Origin: Vulcanimicrobiota bacterium
Lineage (GTDB): Bacteria > Vulcanimicrobiota > Vulcanimicrobiia > Vulcanimicrobiales > Vulcanimicrobiaceae
DNA length: 64,000 nucleotides
Assembly (NCBI GenBank): GCA_003135555.1
Contig: PLCF01000072.1
Span: 19,470-83,469, forward strand
Direction of reading: 5' to 3'
Program-made: the position numbers and the translations under genes
Shown here: positions 39,158 through 63,374 of the stretch, piece by piece
Position numbering within the stretch: the first letter of the stretch is position 1
Layout of the letters: the number at the start of each line of letters is the position of its first letter
The notes under the pieces: generated by a model
What the model was told of the DNA's origin: nothing
Database searches by the model: none
The model's input: only the letters and a program-made list of their open reading frames with translations

Positions 39158-39465
39158 GGCCACGTCGCGCCGCTACGCTATGCGGGATGCGCAATCGTCC
39201 CGCCGTCGATGCGAGCCCCAAAGCGGTCGCGGCGATCGACGCCGTTCTGGATCGCTTCGGCGCTGGCGCGCTCCGCGTCGCCGCGAGCGCCGGCGTGCGC
39301 TTCGTCCACCTGCGCGCTACCGAACGGTACCGCGACCGTTCGCGCGCCTTGCGGCGGCTCGCCAGCGGGGTCGACGACTGGCCGGTGCCGCCAACCGGGC
39401 TGTTCGTCGTCGAGGAGCGCGCCGTCTACCTGCGCTCCACATCACCGATGACGGTGGCGCACGAA
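39158..39465 (+). repeat. copy 1 of the promoter plus 5' part of the HExxH peptidase gene (matches ~44269-44576)
   Basis: About 30 bp of upstream sequence plus 93 codons. 86/93 aa are identical to the intact gene. Confidence 0.93.
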
Positions 39466-39486
39466 TTATACGCAGTCCAACTGTAA
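39187..39486 (+). pseudogene. truncated HExxH metallopeptidase (ends VAHE-LYAVQL*)
   Basis: Homology stops inside the zinc-binding motif, and a stop follows 6 codons later. Confidence 0.85.
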
Positions 39487-39747
39487 ACAAACACGGGTGC
39501 GGTGCCCGAACCCATTCGCCGCTGCCGGCGGCAGTCACGGTATCTGCGCGCCTACACCCTCGACCCACTCAGGGCTGCGGGGATCGACCCCGCTGCGAAC
39601 GACAGCGCGTGAAGGGCGCTTGCGCTTGACGCTCGTCGCGACGATCGCAACGTCGGTCCCTTTACTCTGGACGACTCGTTCGTTATTTAAAAGACTAACG
39701 CTCGAAAACGAAACGTAGACCAGCGCCTGCGTGGCCTGACGGCGCGG

Positions 39748-41343
39748 CTACGGAAACGCATAGTACGTTCCGGTTAGCGCACGCCGTTCGCCAAGCGGGT
39801 ATCGGGGAAGCGGCTTTCCTTCGAACACCTGATGAAGGTCCGTCATTAAGGCCAGTGAATCTGCGAAATACCCGTGCCCCAAGAAATCGGTGTCGACGTT
39901 TGTCGCATCAATGACGTCCATACCGGGAACGAGCGTAATGACTTGCGCGTCGCCGAGCCGGAGGCCCCCGTTATATTTGTGTGACCACGCCAGCGCAGTA
40001 TCTCTCGCCGATGCATAGACGGTAATCCGCCTCGCGGTGCTGCGCATGTTCGTTGCGAGTTGCTCTGTAAAAATCTGTGCATCGATGTCCGGCGCTGCCA
40101 TCTCGATGTCATGGATCGCCTGGGTCTGTTTGCCAGCCGCCAAAAGCTTAAGCGAATACGCGAGCGCGGAATTACCCATACTATGCGCCACGATATGGAT
40201 ATTAGTCACGCCTGTTTTCGACGAGACGCCTACGATGACATCGCTCAAGTGCTTCGCGGTCCAGACCGCATTGACGTTGTCGACTGGATAACCCCACGTT
40301 GTCCCTTGAGACGGCCACGAGTAACAAATTGCCGGACCATCAAGCGTGAGATCATGGGCGAGTTGCCCAGTTCGAAGGAGCGCGTCCTCAAACGGAACGT
40401 TGAACCCGTGAATAAAGAGCAAGGCTTCTTTTGCCTTGCTCCGAAACGTCATGAGCTTAAGGGCCCGATAGAAACTGGAAGCAGATTCGACATGCGAGTC
40501 TAGGATAACCATGTCTCGCTTCGGGTCCGGTTGACGTAAGCGTATGTACAGAAACGTCGGCGGACTCTCGACATTTCCAAACTTGTGATCGTCAGGAATG
40601 CTCACCTCCGCTTCCCCAAACGTCAGAACGCTGCGAGCCGCACCAAACGATGCGATTGGACCGAGCACGCCGGTGGCGTCGCGCTCACGGTCCCGATCCG
40701 TAGCAAAATAGACGCGTAAAGTAGCGAATCCGCGCGTCCGGGGTCGCGCAGTCGGCGCCGGCGTCGCGCCGCGGTCGACCCCATAAACCGAGGAGCTACC
40801 GGAGAGCAGAGTTGCTATCGACTCGACGATCGTGTCCAGGTAATACAAAGTGCTGGCACGAGCATGCACTCGTTGAGCGTCGGCGCGGCAGGCATACCGC
40901 GCATTTCGATTTAATCGCAACCCGTAGCCGTCGGACTCACGCGCAACGTAGATCCCTGCTCCGTCGACCGTCGGAATAACCCAGACCATCGGATTTGCGT
41001 CGGTACAATTAGATTGCGCTGAAGCGCTCGACGCATTTCCCACGGGCTCGGGTCCCTGGCTCACCACGGGCGCGGCGAAATCCACGATGACGGCGACGCG
41101 GCTATGCGCACTCAGCGCCTCAGAGCGGCAGACATAGCGGGCGTCCCGATTCAACTGAAGACCGAAGCCTGCGGAACCTTTCTCCACATAGATGCCGGGG
41201 CCGTCGATCGCTGGAACTTGCCAGACGACAGTATCCGAGCCGGCACAGTTAGGCAGCGCACTGTCTTCTATCTTCGGTGCAGACGACGCAAGAATGGCCG
41301 GGGAAATCGCCACAAGCCACGCCAGCGCAAACAACTTCTTCAT
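39748..41343 (-). CDS. secreted alpha/beta hydrolase (DUF900 esterase/lipase-like) with a duplicated N-terminal Cys domain
   Basis: VYFATDR, FIHGFN, YSWPS.G, HIVAHSMG, AAPDID, YAS..D.AL and GH.YF. GC is about 50% in a sampled line (40381-40440). Confidence 0.88.
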   Translation of the reverse strand: MKKLFALAWLVAISPAILASSAPKIEDSALPNCAGSDTVVWQVPAIDGPGIYVEKGSAGFGLQLNRDARYVCRSEALSAHSRVAVIVDFAAPVVSQGPEPVGNASSASAQSNCTDANPMVWVIPTVDGAGIYVARESDGYGLRLNRNARYACRADAQRVHARASTLYYLDTIVESIATLLSGSSSVYGVDRGATPAPTARPRTRGFATLRVYFATDRDRERDATGVLGPIASFGAARSVLTFGEAEVSIPDDHKFGNVESPPTFLYIRLRQPDPKRDMVILDSHVESASSFYRALKLMTFRSKAKEALLFIHGFNVPFEDALLRTGQLAHDLTLDGPAICYSWPSQGTTWGYPVDNVNAVWTAKHLSDVIVGVSSKTGVTNIHIVAHSMGNSALAYSLKLLAAGKQTQAIHDIEMAAPDIDAQIFTEQLATNMRSTARRITVYASARDTALAWSHKYNGGLRLGDAQVITLVPGMDVIDATNVDTDFLGHGYFADSLALMTDLHQVFEGKPLPRYPLGERRALTGTYYAFP

Positions 41344-41390
41344 ACTGGCCCACCCCCGGAAGCTACCGCTTCCCCAGCCACCGGCCGATG

Positions 41391-41484
41391 AACGCGGCGA
41401 TTCTGGCCATTGACGCGGCTCGCCTGCCGCCGCCCCGCGGTCGTCGACCGGTTCGGCACCGACGCGCTGCGGGTCGTAGCTGCA
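41391..41484 (+). pseudogene. degenerate relic of the peptidase 5' end
   Basis: AAILAIDA + 22-nt insertion + VVDRFGTDALRVVAA aligns with [22 protein letters not shown] of the intact gene. Confidence 0.6.
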
Positions 41485-41624
41485 AGACTTAACGGACGCC
41501 CTCTGTTCGCCGCGCCCGCGAGGAGGTTCACGCCGATCGCTCGCAGCGCGCGAGACGTAGAGACCCGCTCGGCGTCCCCGTGCGGCTCAGCGCAAAAGCG
41601 GCCGTCACAGCGGCGACGCTCTGC

Positions 41625-41774
41625 GGACACATCCGACCGTTACGCTACACGCGATGCGCAACCGTCCCGCCGTCGATGCGAGCCTCGAAGCCGTCGCGGC
41701 GATCGATGCCGTTCTGGACCGCTTCGGCGTCGGCGCAATGCGCGTCGCGGCGAGCGCCGGCGTACGCTTCGTCC
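41625..41774 (+). repeat. copy 2 of the promoter plus 5' part of the HExxH peptidase gene
   Basis: Upstream GGACACATCCGACCGTTACGCTACACGCG plus 40 codons. 35/40 aa are identical to the intact gene. Confidence 0.92.
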
Positions 41775-42070
41775 TGTTGCTGAGACGCAACGACAAGGCA
41801 ATCCTAAAAGCCTATAAGGAATTCTGGGACAAGGTGTGGTGGAATCGCCACCAAAACTGGGTCTATCGCATTGAGTCTAAACAGCAGCCTCTAACGAGAG
41901 AGCAGATGCCGCTTTTCAAACGGGCGGCGAGCGCCGCACGACGGATCGAACGCACGTACGGTAAGAAGAATCTTGGATGGGACGACTTTGAATGGGGCCT
42001 CCTGAGCGGTCGAATGTCGGCGCTAGCCTGGGTAATGGGCGGCGAATGGGACGAGTCCCTGGACACTTGA
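41654..42070 (+). CDS. chimeric ORF: 40 aa of peptidase fused in frame to a foreign Trp-rich C-terminal domain
   Basis: Abrupt change of sequence and GC after 41774. The tail reads DKVWWNRH...[30 protein letters not shown]. Confidence 0.65.
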
Positions 42071-42187
42071 GCCGCCGCATTCGGCTGTTTTTCTATCTTG
42101 TGAAGGTACCAATCACCAATTGGTCATGACGGGGGACAAAGAGCTAAGCTAAGACATCAGGTATCTGTATGGCGCACGCTGCAAGCG

Positions 42188-43543
42188 TCAAAGTCGGCCG
42201 ACGAGCCCGCTTAGCGCGGGGGTTCGCGAAAAGCGCCGATCACCAGGATCGGGCTCGACGATGCGGCGGGGTACTAAGTACGGCCGCGCCAGCTCCTCAA
42301 CTTCATATCCAAAGCGCCGGGTCAAGCCGTCAATGCTCGGCTGGTTGGGCCTACCGTATTGCCTGAAAAGGTTGCCCGCAACGTCCTCAAACTCAACGAT
42401 GACTTGTGCGATGACCCCCATGGGTTCGTAATGGCCTGACCGTTTACTTAGCGGCACGGTTCGAACATAGCGGCCGCCATTTGCCGCAATGGTCACGGGA
42501 GCTTCCAAGGTCGTAAGTCCAGGAAGGAAAGCACGGACCTTGCTTGCAGCTCCTGGGCCGACATTCTCGACTACTAAGTCGATCTCGATGTTTGTTGGCT
42601 CAATCCTGCGAGTGGCTGCGACGAGAATATTTAGGCGCGGACGAAATGCCATAAGCCGTACGTCGTCTTCGAGGGCGTCGTACGGCATTCCGAACGGGCG
42701 ATCGCGTTCGGCTAGGGCCTTTGCAAATGTCGCGGCTGCTTCGCTTGCGATATTAGCCTCTCGCGACGATGTCCCCGCGGAGCCTTCGGAACTCGGCATC
42801 GTCGGCGTCGCTGTCGACACCATCGCCGGCCTGAGGTGCCTCAGTAGTTGAGTCATAACTAGGTCGAGGTCGTCCGCCGGAAAATAGTTCAGCGTAGCAA
42901 GAAATGGGCTTAAGGATTGAAGCTTCTCACGCGGCACATCACACAGGAGCGGCAGTACAACGACCTTACGCTCTTCAATCTGACGCTTCAGCAATGCTTC
43001 AAGTTCGGCTCGTGGATAACTCTTCTCAAAGTACATCTGTGTCAGGATTAAGATCGCAAAGCGTGATTGCGTGAGCCCCTTTTGAATTGCCGAAAGCAGC
43101 GGCTCGCCCCACATAACGCGATCGCGGTCATACCAATAGGAAACCTTTTCCTCATCGAGCCTTTCGAGAAGCTTAGTCACGTAGCCACGGTCTTCGCCTG
43201 CGTACGAGACAAAGACATCGTATGGATAGTCCTCCTCGAACGAGCGGACTACGATCTCCTCGGCACCGCCGCTCGAACCGCGGCTCCGCTTTCGCGATCG
43301 AGCCATAATAGCCGCGCCACGTGTCGTCAGCGTAGCCATGCTTCCAGCTCTGATGCCGGCCGGATGGTGCTTTATATCCACTGCGCCCTCATCGGCTAGG
43401 ATATCGAGCTCATCAAGAACAGCATCCGGGGTGAACCCGAGCTCCCTCGCTATCACGGCCGCGTCGAAGTATCGTTCACTCCCGCCGTCGTTCATCAACT
43501 GCTGCAGCGCTTCTAGGACGGCCAGGCTATCATTATCCATCAT
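42188..43543 (-). CDS. TIR-domain protein with N-terminal winged-helix and an uncharacterised C-terminal domain (putative defence)
   Basis: YDVFVSYAGED, W.D....WG..L...I.KGL..SRFAI.ILT..Y and RAEL (catalytic Glu position). GC is about 47% in a sampled line (43021-43080). Confidence 0.88.
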   Translation of the reverse strand: MMDNDSLAVLEALQQLMNDGGSERYFDAAVIARELGFTPDAVLDELDILADEGAVDIKHHPAGIRAGSMATLTTRGAAIMARSRKRSRGSSGGAEEIVVRSFEEDYPYDVFVSYAGEDRGYVTKLLERLDEEKVSYWYDRDRVMWGEPLLSAIQKGLTQSRFAILILTQMYFEKSYPRAELEALLKRQIEERKVVVLPLLCDVPREKLQSLSPFLATLNYFPADDLDLVMTQLLRHLRPAMVSTATPTMPSSEGSAGTSSREANIASEAAATFAKALAERDRPFGMPYDALEDDVRLMAFRPRLNILVAATRRIEPTNIEIDLVVENVGPGAASKVRAFLPGLTTLEAPVTIAANGGRYVRTVPLSKRSGHYEPMGVIAQVIVEFEDVAGNLFRQYGRPNQPSIDGLTRRFGYEVEELARPYLVPRRIVEPDPGDRRFSRTPALSGLVGRL

Positions 43544-43717
43544 TTTCCGTTTCTATCGTCGAATACTTAGCGGCCCAATAACAGGCATATAAAGCCGACG
43601 TCGCCGTTGGACATAGTCTAGCAGAATGTTGGCAGTTTCCGCTGCATTTTACGAGACGGTCCTATTCAGGATCTCAGATGAGTCCGCGTCACGCTCGCTT
43701 TGAGCTCGACCTCGCTT

Positions 43718-43960
43718 GTTCCCAAACGTTCGCACGCAATGAGTAGGTCGCAGTCGCGAACGATATCGTCGTCTATTACCGACTGCAGACCGCTAAGACG
43801 GCCGCGGCAACCATATCGGTCTTCCAGCGTCGCGGTAGGATGACGGATGCCGTATTCGCAGTATACCTAGTGTTCCAATCTAAGATGCTGCGGGGCGCCA
43901 TGATTCGCTCGTCACTGCAATCGCTCGGTGATGCAATGAACACCTGATAGCAGGTACAGC
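43718..43960 (-). pseudogene. frameshifted DUF4062-like (TIR/NDT-fold) N-terminal fragment
   Basis: YQVFIASPSDCSDER..I.DWN...ILPRRWKTD, then in another frame LQSVIDDDIVRDCDLLI..RLGT. Confidence 0.65.
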
Positions 43961-44297
43961 CCTTATCGGCATTCAGCTGGACCGAGCGCCCGGAGGCCTC
44001 GGCCGAACTTTTCAACGACGCGGCACACGTAGGCGAAGGACCATCTTACGGCAACACATTGGTCACGATATCGTAGTCGCCGACGAACAATCCAACGAGC
44101 CCGTGATCATACTTGCAATGCATCCTCCCCTTCAGCACCGACCGGCGTGGACGCCGTCCGAACATCCCTCGAGATCTGCTCACACGGTCACCTTGCTCCT
44201 TAACTTGACCTCATAGCCATGGCTTTCCGCGCGACTGCCGCCGCTTGGAAACACCCCCGACCACGTGTGGCCACATGCCGCCGCTACGCTACGCGGG

Positions 44298-44852
44298 ATG
44301 CGCAATCGTCCCGCGGTCGAAGCGAGCCCCGAAGCGGCCGCGGCGATCGACGCCGTTCTGGATCGGTTCGGTCCCGGCGCGTTACGGGTCGCGGCGAGCG
44401 CCGGCGTACGCTTCGTCCACTTGCGCGGTAGCGAACGCTACCGCGATCGCTCGCGCGCGCTGCGCAGGCTCGCCAGCGGGGTCGACGACTGGCCGGTACC
44501 GCCGGCCGGGCTCTTCGTCGTCGAGGAGCGCGCCGTCTACCTGCGCTCGACCTCACCGATGACGGTCGCACACGAGTTCGCGCACGCGCTGGACTGCGCG
44601 CTGGGCGGGGGCGTCTACCTCAGCGGCGTCGATACGCGCGTGCGCCGCGCGTTCCGCAACGCGCGCGCCTTCATCACACCCTACGCGGCTTCGGGTCTGG
44701 ACGAGTATTTTGCCGAATCGCTCCGCGCCTGGGTCGAGGCCAACGACCCGCGCTCTCCGTGGCCGCGCGCAACGCGAGCGCGGCTGCGCGAGCTCGATCC
44801 CGCGATGGCGGAGATCCTCGAGAGCATCTTCGCCAACGACTTGATTGCGTGA
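44298..44852 (+). CDS. zinc metallopeptidase, anthrax lethal factor/Pro-Pro endopeptidase (ATLF)-like fold; intact copy
   Basis: HEFAHALD, TPYA and EYFAESLRAW. TACGCT -10-like box 7 nt before the ATG. Confidence 0.8.
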   Translation: MRNRPAVEASPEAAAAIDAVLDRFGPGALRVAASAGVRFVHLRGSERYRDRSRALRRLASGVDDWPVPPAGLFVVEERAVYLRSTSPMTVAHEFAHALDCALGGGVYLSGVDTRVRRAFRNARAFITPYAASGLDEYFAESLRAWVEANDPRSPWPRATRARLRELDPAMAEILESIFANDLIA

Positions 44853-44859
44853 TGCGCTC

Positions 44860-46410
44860 CTACTGCTGCGCCGCGATCATCAAGCTGAAATCGGACGTGA
44901 AATTCTTGTAGTAGCCTTGCATGAACAGGCTGTGGCAGTACATGCAGCTGTAGATTGAGCTCCGGGCGGTCGACGGCGGCACATACGTTTCCATGACGGA
45001 GTTGCCGAGTAGGAACGGTTGGACCACTCCCAGCTTCGCTGGGTTGGGAGAAGGTATCGGGCCGGACCCGCCGCTCCATTGTGTGCTGATCAACTGGTAG
45101 TACCACCACGGAGTGTTTTTTAGCATACCGCGAAACTGCGCGTTGAGCGTGACCGTCATGGGCGAGGGCGTGACGAAGGCCACCACCTGCGTCGGTGGAT
45201 TGTATTTGCCGCCCGGCCTGACCTCGATGTAGGGCGTCGGTGCCGTTTGCGTGTTGGGCGGACAGCTTGCCGGCGAGCACGCCGGGTTGTAGAACGATTT
45301 CGGGTTTGCGTCTTGGGGTCCGTCGGTATCGTTGTCGATCTGCTCGAACGTCGACCAGATCCAGCTCGACTGCCGGGCCGTCTTGTGGATGATGTGCAAC
45401 GCGACGAGCCCGACGGTTACGTTTTCGGGCGGCCCGGAGCCCGCCCCGTCGTTGTACACGATCGCGGACATCGTGAAGAAGTGCGAGAACGTGTCCTTCC
45501 CCGGCACGAGCACTTTCCACCCGGCTTTGAATTCCATGGCACCAACCGTCGCGCCGGGTGTTTTCGCCGTCGGAAACTTCAGGTTGCCCGTGGCTTGCTC
45601 GCCGGCAAACGTCCACAGCTTGTTGGTCATGATGTAGTGGTAGTCGTCGTAGTTCATGCTGACCGTGAAGCGCTCGAAGCGCCCGTGCTGGTCGACCACG
45701 GGCTGATCCGTTGCGTCGAGGATCACCTTGAGAACGGCCGGATCGATGGGACTGGGGCTGGCCGCCGTGAACCGGTTCGGCGTCCCGAGCGCAGCCTGCG
45801 CACGAAGCGCAGCCGCAAGGGCATGCCCCTTCGAGTCGTGATGCAAGTACAAGAGCTTGCCGTTGGGATGGCTCTTGAAGTACGTGCGCGCGAGCGCCTG
45901 CACGGGGGCCGGAAGGTGCGCAGTTTGCCCCTCTCGCATCGCGGCGCTCACCTGTGCGCCCGTGATGTGGCGAGTGCCGCCATGCGGCGCGTTGCCGCCG
46001 CACCAGGGCGCCGGCGTCGCGGGCGCCTTGATGAAGACGTCGTCGCTGTTCAGGTAGGTCAGCCAGGTTGGATTCGGCGGTGCGGTGAGAATGCTCAACG
46101 TCGGCGCGGGCGCGCACGTCGTCGCATCAACGGGCCAGTTCACGGCGAGGAAGGTCAGCCACGAGTAGACGTCGACCGGCGGCTGGGTGTCGCCGGTGCC
46201 GTTCATGTCGGTCGGAATCACGGCGCACGTCGCGTCGATCCGGTTCGGGACCGGCACGACGTTGCTGGGTTTCTCGGCATCCGCACACGTGACGACGGTG
46301 GGTGGCGGTGCGGCGGCATCGACTTTGCCGAACCCGAGGACGACCGCAGCCCCTCCGATCAACGCCAAGAACAACCCCGCGAGCACCCCTCGAAACGCCG
46401 GGTTCTGCAT
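44860..46410 (-). CDS. secreted protein with a single C-terminal CxxCH heme motif (uncharacterised cytochrome c family)
   Basis: Signal/TM N-terminus, SW.TFLAVNWP, E.KA.WK, GLVALHI.HKT...WIWSTFEQ.DN, L.NS.METY and SCMYCH. Confidence 0.75.
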   Translation of the reverse strand: MQNPAFRGVLAGLFLALIGGAAVVLGFGKVDAAAPPPTVVTCADAEKPSNVVPVPNRIDATCAVIPTDMNGTGDTQPPVDVYSWLTFLAVNWPVDATTCAPAPTLSILTAPPNPTWLTYLNSDDVFIKAPATPAPWCGGNAPHGGTRHITGAQVSAAMREGQTAHLPAPVQALARTYFKSHPNGKLLYLHHDSKGHALAAALRAQAALGTPNRFTAASPSPIDPAVLKVILDATDQPVVDQHGRFERFTVSMNYDDYHYIMTNKLWTFAGEQATGNLKFPTAKTPGATVGAMEFKAGWKVLVPGKDTFSHFFTMSAIVYNDGAGSGPPENVTVGLVALHIIHKTARQSSWIWSTFEQIDNDTDGPQDANPKSFYNPACSPASCPPNTQTAPTPYIEVRPGGKYNPPTQVVAFVTPSPMTVTLNAQFRGMLKNTPWWYYQLISTQWSGGSGPIPSPNPAKLGVVQPFLLGNSVMETYVPPSTARSSIYSCMYCHSLFMQGYYKNFTSDFSLMIAAQQ

Positions 46411-46588
46411 GATCTCCACCCTTCTCCAGACGACGAGCCGCGGCACGGCGGTCATGGGCATCCGCGGACGGCATGCTACAAGGTCGCACAGGGCTCTTAG
46501 CCAAGCGCATTTTCTGTGCTCCCCGCCCAATCCTTCGCCTTCGAATCCTCGATTCAACCTTCGCCAACGACCTCGTCGCTTGACGATA

Positions 46589-46644
46589 GTGGCCCACCCT
46601 TCGACGGGGCTCACGCGCAGCGTGACACCACGTCAGGGTGACAA
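46589..46644 (+). repeat. REP-like element, direct-repeat copy A
   Basis: GTGGCCCACCCTTCGACGGGGCTCACGCGCAGCGTGACACCACGTCAGGGTGACAA, nearly identical to 47363-47417. Confidence 0.9.
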
Positions 46645-46661
46645 GGACGACGACGGCGCGC

Positions 46662-47346: not shown

Positions 47347-47362
47347 CGCCCTCGGCGCGATC

Positions 47363-47417
47363 GTGGCTCACCCTTCGACGGGCTCACGCGCAGCGTGACA
47401 CCACGTCAGGGTGACAA
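47363..47417 (+). repeat. REP-like element, direct-repeat copy B
   Basis: Differs from copy A by one substitution and one G. Confidence 0.9.
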
Positions 47418-62939: not shown

Positions 62940-63374
62940 ATGACCCCGGAAACGACACCCGCTGCCGCTCCGGCAGCAGCACCGAAGAAGAAACGCGGCG
63001 GCAAGCGCAAGGGCGCCGGCCGTAAGAAAGCCGCCGGCAAGAAGGCCGCGGCTCCCCGCAAGAAAGCCGCAAAGAAGGCCGGTGGCCGCAAGAAGGCCGC
63101 TCGCAAGAAGACCGGCGGACGCAAGAAAGCCGCGAAGAAAGCCGGTGGCCGTAAGAAGGCCGGCGGGCGCAAGAAGGCCGCGAAGAAGGCCGGCGGGCGC
63201 AAGAAGAAAGCCGGAGGCCGTAAGAAGGCCGGCGGGCGCAAGAAGGCCGCGAAGAAGGCCGGTGGGCGCAAGAAGAAAGCCGGAGGACGTAAGAAGGCCG
63301 GCGGGCGCAAGAAGGCCGCGAAAAAGGCCGGCGGGCGCAAGAAGAAAGCCGGCGGGCGCAAGAAGAAAAAGTAG
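62940..63374 (+). CDS. histone H1-like Lys/Ala/Gly/Arg-rich nucleoid protein
   Basis: GAGGAGG RBS, KKAGGR/KKAA repeats and an intrinsic terminator downstream. Confidence 0.85.
   Translation: MTPETTPAAAPAAAPKKKRGGKRKGAGRKKAAGKKAAAPRKKAAKKAGGRKKAARKKTGGRKKAAKKAGGRKKAGGRKKAAKKAGGRKKKAGGRKKAGGRKKAAKKAGGRKKKAGGRKKAGGRKKAAKKAGGRKKKAGGRKKKK
63153..63359 (+). repeat. 3 x 69-bp coding tandem repeat (KKAGGRKKAAKKAGGRKKKAGGR)
   Basis: Units start at 63153, 63222 and 63291 and differ only at synonymous positions. Confidence 0.9.

Follow-up and report, generated by a model that had tools for sequence, protein, structure and literature searches.

Why should a gene be preceded by several broken copies of its own beginning? 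This question is raised by a stretch of 64,000 nucleotides (hereafter the window) of contig PLCF01000072.1, from assembly GCA_003135555.1 of a Vulcanimicrobiota bacterium, in which an intact gene for a putative zinc peptidase follows truncated copies of its 5′ end, with unrelated cargo genes between them. The original prediction, made from the sequence, held that incoming DNA anchors by homology in the resident gene and joins illegitimately within its 5′ part, each event leaving a scar and regenerating an intact gene. This would create a self-renewing, integrase-free capture site for defence-like cargo. Our comparison with related genomes leads to a different reading, which we hold with a probability of about two in three: two families of tyrosine-recombinase transposons target the peptidase gene in a sequence-specific manner, and what is left in the window is the debris of an insertion followed by a rescue. 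In the following, G000 is the genome of the window, and other G, L and P codes denote relative genomes, loci and protein alleles. Unpublished genomes (G032 and others) enter the tallies of gene occurrence and the genus-level profile and tables; none of the junction and array claims rests on them.

Disruption at a fixed point in the HExxH codons

The claimed identities of two 5′ copies, scar 1 and scar 2, to the intact gene (86/93 and 35/40 amino acids) were confirmed by alignment. Scar 1 aligns over 39158–39467 (88% of nucleotides over 310 bp) and scar 2 over 41622–41780 (84% over 159 bp), and these are the only long copies of the gene in the assembly. Scar 1 and the intact gene differ by 23 synonymous and 7 non-synonymous codons, which supports the view that the copies were functional alleles while they diverged. 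Scar 1 had been read as integrase-free; the end of a mobile element, however, follows it immediately (Table 1). The break lies in the HExxH codons, at a position that we call site A. A search for the exact junction pattern returned four of 385 genomes (G000, G009, G214 and G330) from three genera, in every case within peptidase 5′ pieces. Since the pattern with one mismatch occurred in 50 of the 385 genomes, near the level of a reversed-pattern control, only the four exact matches were counted. Their 6-bp spacers are CACGAA, CACAAT, CACGTT and CACGAG, with the first three bases fixed and the last three variable. By analogy, this fits the hybrid 6-nt sites of GInts. G009 breaks at the same base as scar 1 and has a nearly identical element end. 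Because the G000 and G009 scars are each closest to the gene of their own genome (rank 1 of 34) and only 78.6% alike mutually, the two insertions were independent.

The nature of the element became visible in G330, where the peptidase gene is split by a 24-kb island with CACGAG at both junctions. The ends of the island, TTAT..TGTAAAC and GTTTACA..CCTAA, form imperfect terminal inverted repeats. A four-gene module lies at the far end, in the order recombinase (376 aa, PF00589), non-catalytic partner (554 aa with a tyrosine-recombinase fold, the first catalytic Arg absent by inspection), large recombinase that is frameshifted but has the catalytic motifs, and a 127-aa DUF6262-like protein. The cargo of the island includes type III restriction-modification, AAA and Avs2-like genes. 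By its sequence, scar 1 is a junction at site A of which the recombinase-distal arm alone remains. Thus, a relative does hold a recombinase-bearing element at the site of scar 1, an observation that the original prediction had named as speaking against itself. A metagenome scan for the site-A junction yielded two loci, one with the G009 layout and one AT-rich and without a peptidase piece; scars repeated in an array at site A were not encountered. As a separate observation, G104 carries a second four-gene SE-like module (L260:9928-14006) about 170 kb from its array, 27–41% identical to the G330 proteins.

The source is a metagenome bin of a soil bacterium whose habitat also contains sister strains at higher abundance, and there are no long reads, so that strain variants might have been joined by mis-assembly. 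We consider this extremely improbable. Contigs of a second sample from the same study (X2) showed 0 differences from the window over 39403–41774, 42316–44308, 44804–45457 and 45465–46618, at a depth of 7–9. They cross the junctions of scar 1, of a further relic, of scar 2 and of the intact promoter at even depth; the identity is piecewise, no single listed contig covering the entire region. In addition, the site-A junction recurs in other genomes. The more abundant sister strains are without 39.3–44.1 kb, and an abundant X2 contig joins the end of the peptidase gene directly to 46582.

A second target in the EYFAE codons

Exact left junctions at a second position, site B in the EYFAE codons, were found in G187, G205, G370 and G105, and the read-through proteins P0007, P0277 and P0362 continue from EYFA into VMWN or VM. 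A TnpA-type recombinase occurs in three of 385 genomes, and in all three the distal end reads TTATGT(G/A)GAAT. In G187 the TnpA/TnpB-like recombinases measure 352 and 754 aa, both match PF00589, and homologues are present in G029 and G370; no TnpC was called downstream of tnpB in G187. The spacers are TCGCTG and CCCCTG in G187, and TTGCCG and GAACTG in G370. Site-B elements thus have a specific target, no target duplication and a foreign spacer at one end. Elements at both sites join via a 6-bp spacer between TTAT-type arms. One-mismatch matches to site B in G233 and G284 contained no peptidase piece and were rejected.

Related sequences also occur away from the peptidase gene. In G029, a TnpA/TnpB element of the site-B type, about 24 kb long, has another gene as its insertion site and carries this same arm at its distal end (L274/L275). 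G000 has stray site-B-like arms, TTATGCGGAATT, at C58:104312 and C68:5783, of which one overlaps the start of an HTH gene and one adjoins a small low-GC gene pair. G000 also has a XerC-like recombinase at a contig end (C55:28-4933, L276), beside an OLD/UvrD-like pair that is Gabija-like by inspection.

Stacked recombinase-free units in relatives

Array loci were picked from genomes having several peptidase matches. At 15 of the 16 loci examined we detected 27 arm+core junctions, consisting of an inverted arm, a 6-bp core and the 3′ end of the gene; 20 of them have the exact 12-mer. A genome scan for arm plus core gave 84 stretches, of which 80 were retrieved; 15 contained a peptidase piece, and the remainder were taken as chance. 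Arrays are present in 12 genomes of three genera and at locus L191, with up to five units downstream of the intact gene at site B. A unit of 0.25–6 kb consists of the core, the gene 3′ end, cargo and one distal element arm, and ends in a 12–13 bp arm and 6-bp core. One core and one arm are common to all arrays. No recombinase gene was called within or beside the arrays; the PF00589 matches in four array genomes lie elsewhere. The idea of a self-renewing, ordered capture site thus holds for this gene in relatives, but there it is site-specific, with one 6-bp core and one arm.

The 3′ pieces within one array are 57–77% alike and are therefore not local duplications. Between G169 and G274, which belong to different genera, the intact genes are 37–83% identical before the core (63–83% immediately 5′ of it) and 90–100% after it, and the cargo is 95% identical over 749 bp, up to the arm. 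Similarly, G118 and G206 share 749 bp at 99.6% identity ending at the arm, beyond which the targets are 43% alike. Read from these alignments, array units have been transferred between genomes, including between genera, and joined at the core.

Could the arrays instead go back to one site-specific disruption that then spread through RecA-type exchange among gene pieces, or through the single Xer recombinase of the host, rather than through TnpA/TnpB in trans? Homologous gene pieces do flank the units, array genomes lack TnpA matches yet have a Xer-like gene, and the element arm resembles a XerD arm. We nevertheless find this quite improbable. It is difficult to reconcile with the divergence of the 3′ pieces within an array, with the identity step at the core between G169 and G274, and with one cargo and arm joined to two such different targets. 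Moreover, the arm is located at the ends of TnpA/TnpB elements. A scan for dif-like patterns in five near-complete genomes gave four unrelated sites in three of the five, about the control level, and no convincing shared dif.

We infer instead that the units circularise as one-armed intermediates and integrate at site B via a TnpA/TnpB recombinase supplied in trans. Since a cassette has one 12–13 bp arm and a gene 3′ end, every insertion would repair the gene and renew the site, displacing older units outward in a newest-first, integron-like order, while selection would keep the peptidase intact. The occurrence of the gene in 289 of 301 genomes of the order is consistent with selection for rescue. 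A bolder extension, which is possible but tentative, would see here a Vulcanimicrobiota equivalent of integrons built from transposon leftovers, with the EYFAE site as attI, one-armed cassettes, rare passing TnpA/TnpB elements as the source of the recombinase, and the window as a mirror image at the HExxH codons.

A proposed insertion and rescue in the window

The window itself is a decayed mosaic: besides one intact allele and two relics, it contains a site-specific junction and a second junction that probably arose by inversion or deletion (Table 1). The full-length allele P0003 matches scar 1 at 91 of 93 amino acids, and differs from the intact gene at five positions in the 5′ half and three in the 3′ half. 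The original prediction had missed a 3′ remnant downstream of the intact gene (profile E 0.011; 85% identical over 41 nt to L032, E 2e-6), which ends NDLVA, as does P0003. Scar 1 is probably the 5′ half of the resident allele and the 3′ remnant possibly its end. Because P0003 fits scar 1 and the NDLVA end, and departs from the intact gene in the 5′ as well as the 3′ half, we favour a resident allele that was split and another that came in whole: the intact allele probably arrived later. An element would have split the resident allele at site A. The whole intact allele of a sister lineage would then have recombined in with flanking cargo and older scars, a replacement that would have removed the recombinase end of the element, and an inversion or deletion would have generated scar 2.

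Table 1. Features of the peptidase locus (positions in the window)
Feature	Position	Strand	Remarks
Scar 1: promoter and peptidase codons 1–93	39158–39465	+	Ends in 6-bp spacer CACGAA (39460–39465), site A
Recombinase-distal end of SE/GInt-like tyrosine-recombinase element	39466–39488	+	23 bp, TTATACGCAGTCCAACTGTAAAC
Cargo: DUF900 alpha/beta hydrolase with N-terminal internal repeat	39748–41343	-	PF05990, E 7e-44
Decayed relic of peptidase 5′ part, no element arm	41391–41484	+	Profile E 7e-4
Scar 2: promoter and peptidase codons 1–40, no element arm	41622–41774	+	
C-terminal ~97 aa of DUF4062- or deaminase-fused family	41777–42070	+	In frame with scar 2
Cargo: wHTH-TIR protein	42188–43543	-	PF13676, E 9e-19
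Frameshifted N-terminal relic of DUF4062 gene	43714–43955	-	Same family as the tail at 41777
Intact gene of the stand-alone zinc peptidase with predicted ATLF/PPEP fold, probably leaderless	44298–44852	+	
Site A	44571–44576		HExxH codons 92–93 of the peptidase gene
Site B	44710–44715		EYFAE codons 138–140 of the peptidase gene
Downstream cargo gene of no named family	44860–46410	-	69% homologue follows the peptidase in G064
Peptidase 3′ remnant: last 12 codons and stop	46545–46583	+	ILDSTFANDLVA*; downstream of the intact gene

The arrays suggest an alternative for the window as well. Here, 39466–44570 would be a one-armed restoring cassette of arm, cargo, promoter and codons 1–93 integrated at site A, and the intact gene a hybrid of the cassette's 5′ half and the resident 3′ half. 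The layout of 5′ piece, distal arm, cargo and intact gene is indeed found also in G009 (site A) and G216 (site B), and among the first 93 codons P0003 is closer to scar 1 than to the intact gene. The intact gene, however, differs from P0003 in its 3′ half too, the remnant downstream ends like P0003, and the abundant X2 contig links the gene end straight to 46582. Together with the lack of repeated site-A scars, this makes the cassette unlikely at the window, and we retain insertion followed by replacement with a whole allele.

To joining at arbitrary points by homology-anchored illegitimate recombination, without a site-specific enzyme, as the source of all scars, we give a slim chance. Such a mechanism has been proposed for orphan immunity arrays, in the text available of PMC5361080. 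Three of the four window fragments and the scars of G010 and G035 are arm-less and of different lengths, as it would predict. Both sites, by contrast, have fixed breakpoints, conserved arms and recombinase-bearing elements, and scar 1 shares its breakpoint and the foreign end with G009, G214 and G330. As a general mechanism it is refuted by the breakpoints and arms; it survives as the rescue step only, where a homology-anchored event may have been the route by which the intact allele returned. The arm-less scars can be read differently. The G035 scar joins codon ~15 to the DNA that follows the stop codon in G025, and reads from its sequence as an internal deletion of a former full copy; G269 still has two full peptidase copies around cargo, and outside the window scars without an arm look like what remains after redundant copies were deleted. 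For scar 2, an inversion fits. The tail in frame with it corresponds to the C-terminal end of a ~358-aa family, and the DUF4062 relic, on the opposite strand, to the N-terminal end of that family, which indicates an inversion with deletion and makes scar 2 a probable breakpoint, judged from these alignments. The two may instead be separate genes.

Several observations weigh against our reading of the window and the arrays. The element arm is present at one of the four window fragments, scar 1. Support for the rescue step comes only from protein alleles and a single contig joint, and the 3′ remnant differs from the end of P0003 at two of 12 codons, above the rate of scar 1. A hint of homology-anchored rescue in G009 (an OmpA-end trace of a second copy) is a 10-bp match with E 0.17 and was not used as support. 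Because the array loci were chosen for multiple matches, their frequencies are not those of a random sample. No TnpA-type match at E ≤ 1e-40 was found in the array-bearing genomes or in G000, so that a supply of recombinase in trans has to be assumed. An identity step at site B was not seen genus-wide (third-position identity 52.9/49.9 in g30 versus 61.7/56.8 in g1). Downstream DNA is common to only 6 of 528 pairs of 3′ pieces, and the overall correlation was not significant (rho 0.06, p 0.14). Finally, no recombination event or circular intermediate was observed.

The target gene and its surroundings

Residues H92, E93, H96 and E140 of the peptidase, that is HExxH and a distal Glu, are conserved. 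PF07737 was matched by 18 of 65 family members, the window protein itself being unmatched. The structure model has a pLDDT of 95.9 and a TM score of 0.68 to PPEP-2 at 20% sequence identity; it superseded an earlier, poor model from a shallow alignment (pLDDT 49.6). By predicted fold and the HExxH/distal Glu residues, the protein is a predicted ATLF/PPEP-like zinc peptidase. The gene is present in 57 of 61 relatives, and the commonest phylum among the peptidase clusters is Vulcanimicrobiota. Across the genus it is bordered by a GGDEF gene on one side and ftsW/rodA on the other, and variable cargo lies on either side of it; G020 shows the empty layout. The locus is thus a cargo hotspot across the genus, as predicted. 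Calling the cargo defence-like proved too broad: in the genus and in the arrays it is mostly not defence-like (mostly metabolic at the genus loci), and defence genes dominate the disruptive insertions only. Peptidase scars occur at four of the 34 genus loci, 29 of which have at least 3 kb of upstream sequence. Paralogues lie in mobile-element contexts near ssb-, relaxase- and TraG-like genes, some named by inspection.

In most of the 34 alleles a TACGCT-like hexamer is conserved about 7 nt 5′ of the ATG (39174–39189 and 44285–44300 in the window), a position that suggests a leaderless transcript. A sigma-70 promoter scan gave 0 sites; the promoter claim is based on conservation across alleles. 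AAC/GTT-type words at about -48 and -30 may form a regulator site. The peptidase domain is also found N-terminally fused in proteins of 600–1300 aa (L068:9593-13450; P0276, P0282, P0291 and P0294), one fusion adjoining a relaxase-like gene, and alleles of family f3 have open frames of ~300 codons. In G047, also family f3, a 3′ piece from codon ~119 lies 1.4 kb 3′ of the intact gene and has no site-B arm (L095:9663-9863). Immediately after the peptidase, G027 and G025 have a HEPN gene and its small partner, and in G035 such a pair comes after the scar (L034, L038 and L046).

In the window, the remaining relic of the 5′ part is weak but real, its score being reached by 2 of 1000 shuffles. No PF00589 recombinase is encoded on the contig, in agreement with the original prediction; the four matches in the assembly are all on other contigs. 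The window has 0 tRNA or tmRNA genes and thus is no tRNA/tmRNA island. The G+C content between the copies, given earlier as 47–50%, was measured at 58.6% and 56.1%, against 71.0% in the gene, and the lowest 400-bp window has 52.7%. The DUF900 and TIR assignments of the cargo were upheld by Pfam, and the N-terminus of the wHTH-TIR protein has a weak match to NF050184. The supposed foreign gene tail was borne out, with 73–80% identity to 120 homologues among the matches listed; it constitutes a highly conserved C-terminal domain of ~100 aa with 1733 matches, in DUF4062 or deaminase fusions, and Pfam lists no separate family for it. Pfam likewise gave no match for the DUF4062 relic, which nevertheless aligns to a DUF4062 protein (43% over 44 aa); profile positions 6–55 match with E 2e-11, and positions 62–87 weakly. 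A REP-like repeat of ~55 bp occurs at 46585–46645 and 47360–47415, with dozens of copies across the assembly, and Lys/Ala/Arg-rich tandem repeats of the histone-like protein type lie at 63023–63365.

Comparison with known systems

The component parts are already known: SE, GInt and Tn554 elements, the target-gene copy in Tn552-II, and tandem accretion at ssrA. ICESt1 is reportedly an example of tandem accretion and cis-mobilizable elements. Site-B elements resemble the Tn554 family in having TnpA and a large TnpB tyrosine recombinase. Integrons hold small recombinase-free cassettes with one recombination site each, regenerate their insertion site, place the newest cassette first and share cassettes between genomes. 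The array units are likewise mobile, recombinase-free and in ordered arrays; unlike integrons, the arrays have no IntI or adjacent integrase, and their platform is a conserved peptidase gene.

The site-A element, known here from sequence alone, is SE/GInt-like by gene order and ends. It shares with SE elements, as the available parts of PMC10214605 and PMC9345347 describe them, the order intA, tfp, intB and srap-type gene, imperfect inverted repeats at its termini, a 6-bp spacer and target specificity. SE elements are reported there from Gammaproteobacteria. The window keeps one end only, the four-gene module being absent. The second G330 protein has 46 plasmid matches below 60% identity; the 15 listed are alpha- or betaproteobacterial and none of them is annotated as an SE protein. 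No NCBIfam match was found for the module proteins. GInts, in the portions available of PMC5385486, likewise have a four-gene module at one end, cargo, a short distal end and hybrid 6-nt att sites, and insert into protein-coding genes; complementation in trans was demonstrated. Their order, however, is ginABCD with the non-catalytic GinC third, where the non-catalytic G330 protein is second, and those portions report no gene-restoring one-armed stacks.

Within the Tn554 family, Tn552-II includes a target-gene-like copy that contains an att and has been proposed to serve as a rescue, but it is autonomous and single with a 7-bp att (PMC12486829, in part). The array units have only the gene 3′ end and one arm, without recombinase genes, up to five deep. 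At ssrA in Dehalococcoides, successive site-specific insertions leave serial 3′-end copies and some islands lack an integration module, as far as the text available of PMC3146451 goes; there the repeat is ~20 bp at the end of an RNA gene and most islands have their own integrase. Our arrays have their site within a protein-coding gene and repeat ~145 bp in the form of diverged alleles, and the units examined have no recombinase. Orphan effector/immunity arrays also grow in order by serial displacement beside a conserved gene; the accessible part of PMC5361080 gives no known att site for them, and the peptidase arrays have a fixed core and arm. The variable breakpoints and absent conserved site of arrays built by homology-facilitated illegitimate recombination are seen here in the arm-less scars only. 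Further literature on known systems includes PMC8138268, available in part. In titles and abstract openings, a scope outside most subscription journals, no description of the peptidase locus or of such cassettes was found.

Implications

The cassette platform at the peptidase gene of the relatives is apparently undescribed so far. One caution follows for single genomes: an integrase-free scar array can be the debris of site-specific elements, recognisable only via relatives. If our reading is true, recombinases of the Tn554 and SE types would be able to move one-ended substrates, and a host protein-coding gene that lacks its own integrase could become a platform for cassettes that repairs itself. 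This would constitute a second route to integron-like arrays, with a compact site of a 6-bp core and a 12-bp arm. It would also extend SE- and Tn554-like elements to Vulcanimicrobiota and account for the cargo hotspot across the order.

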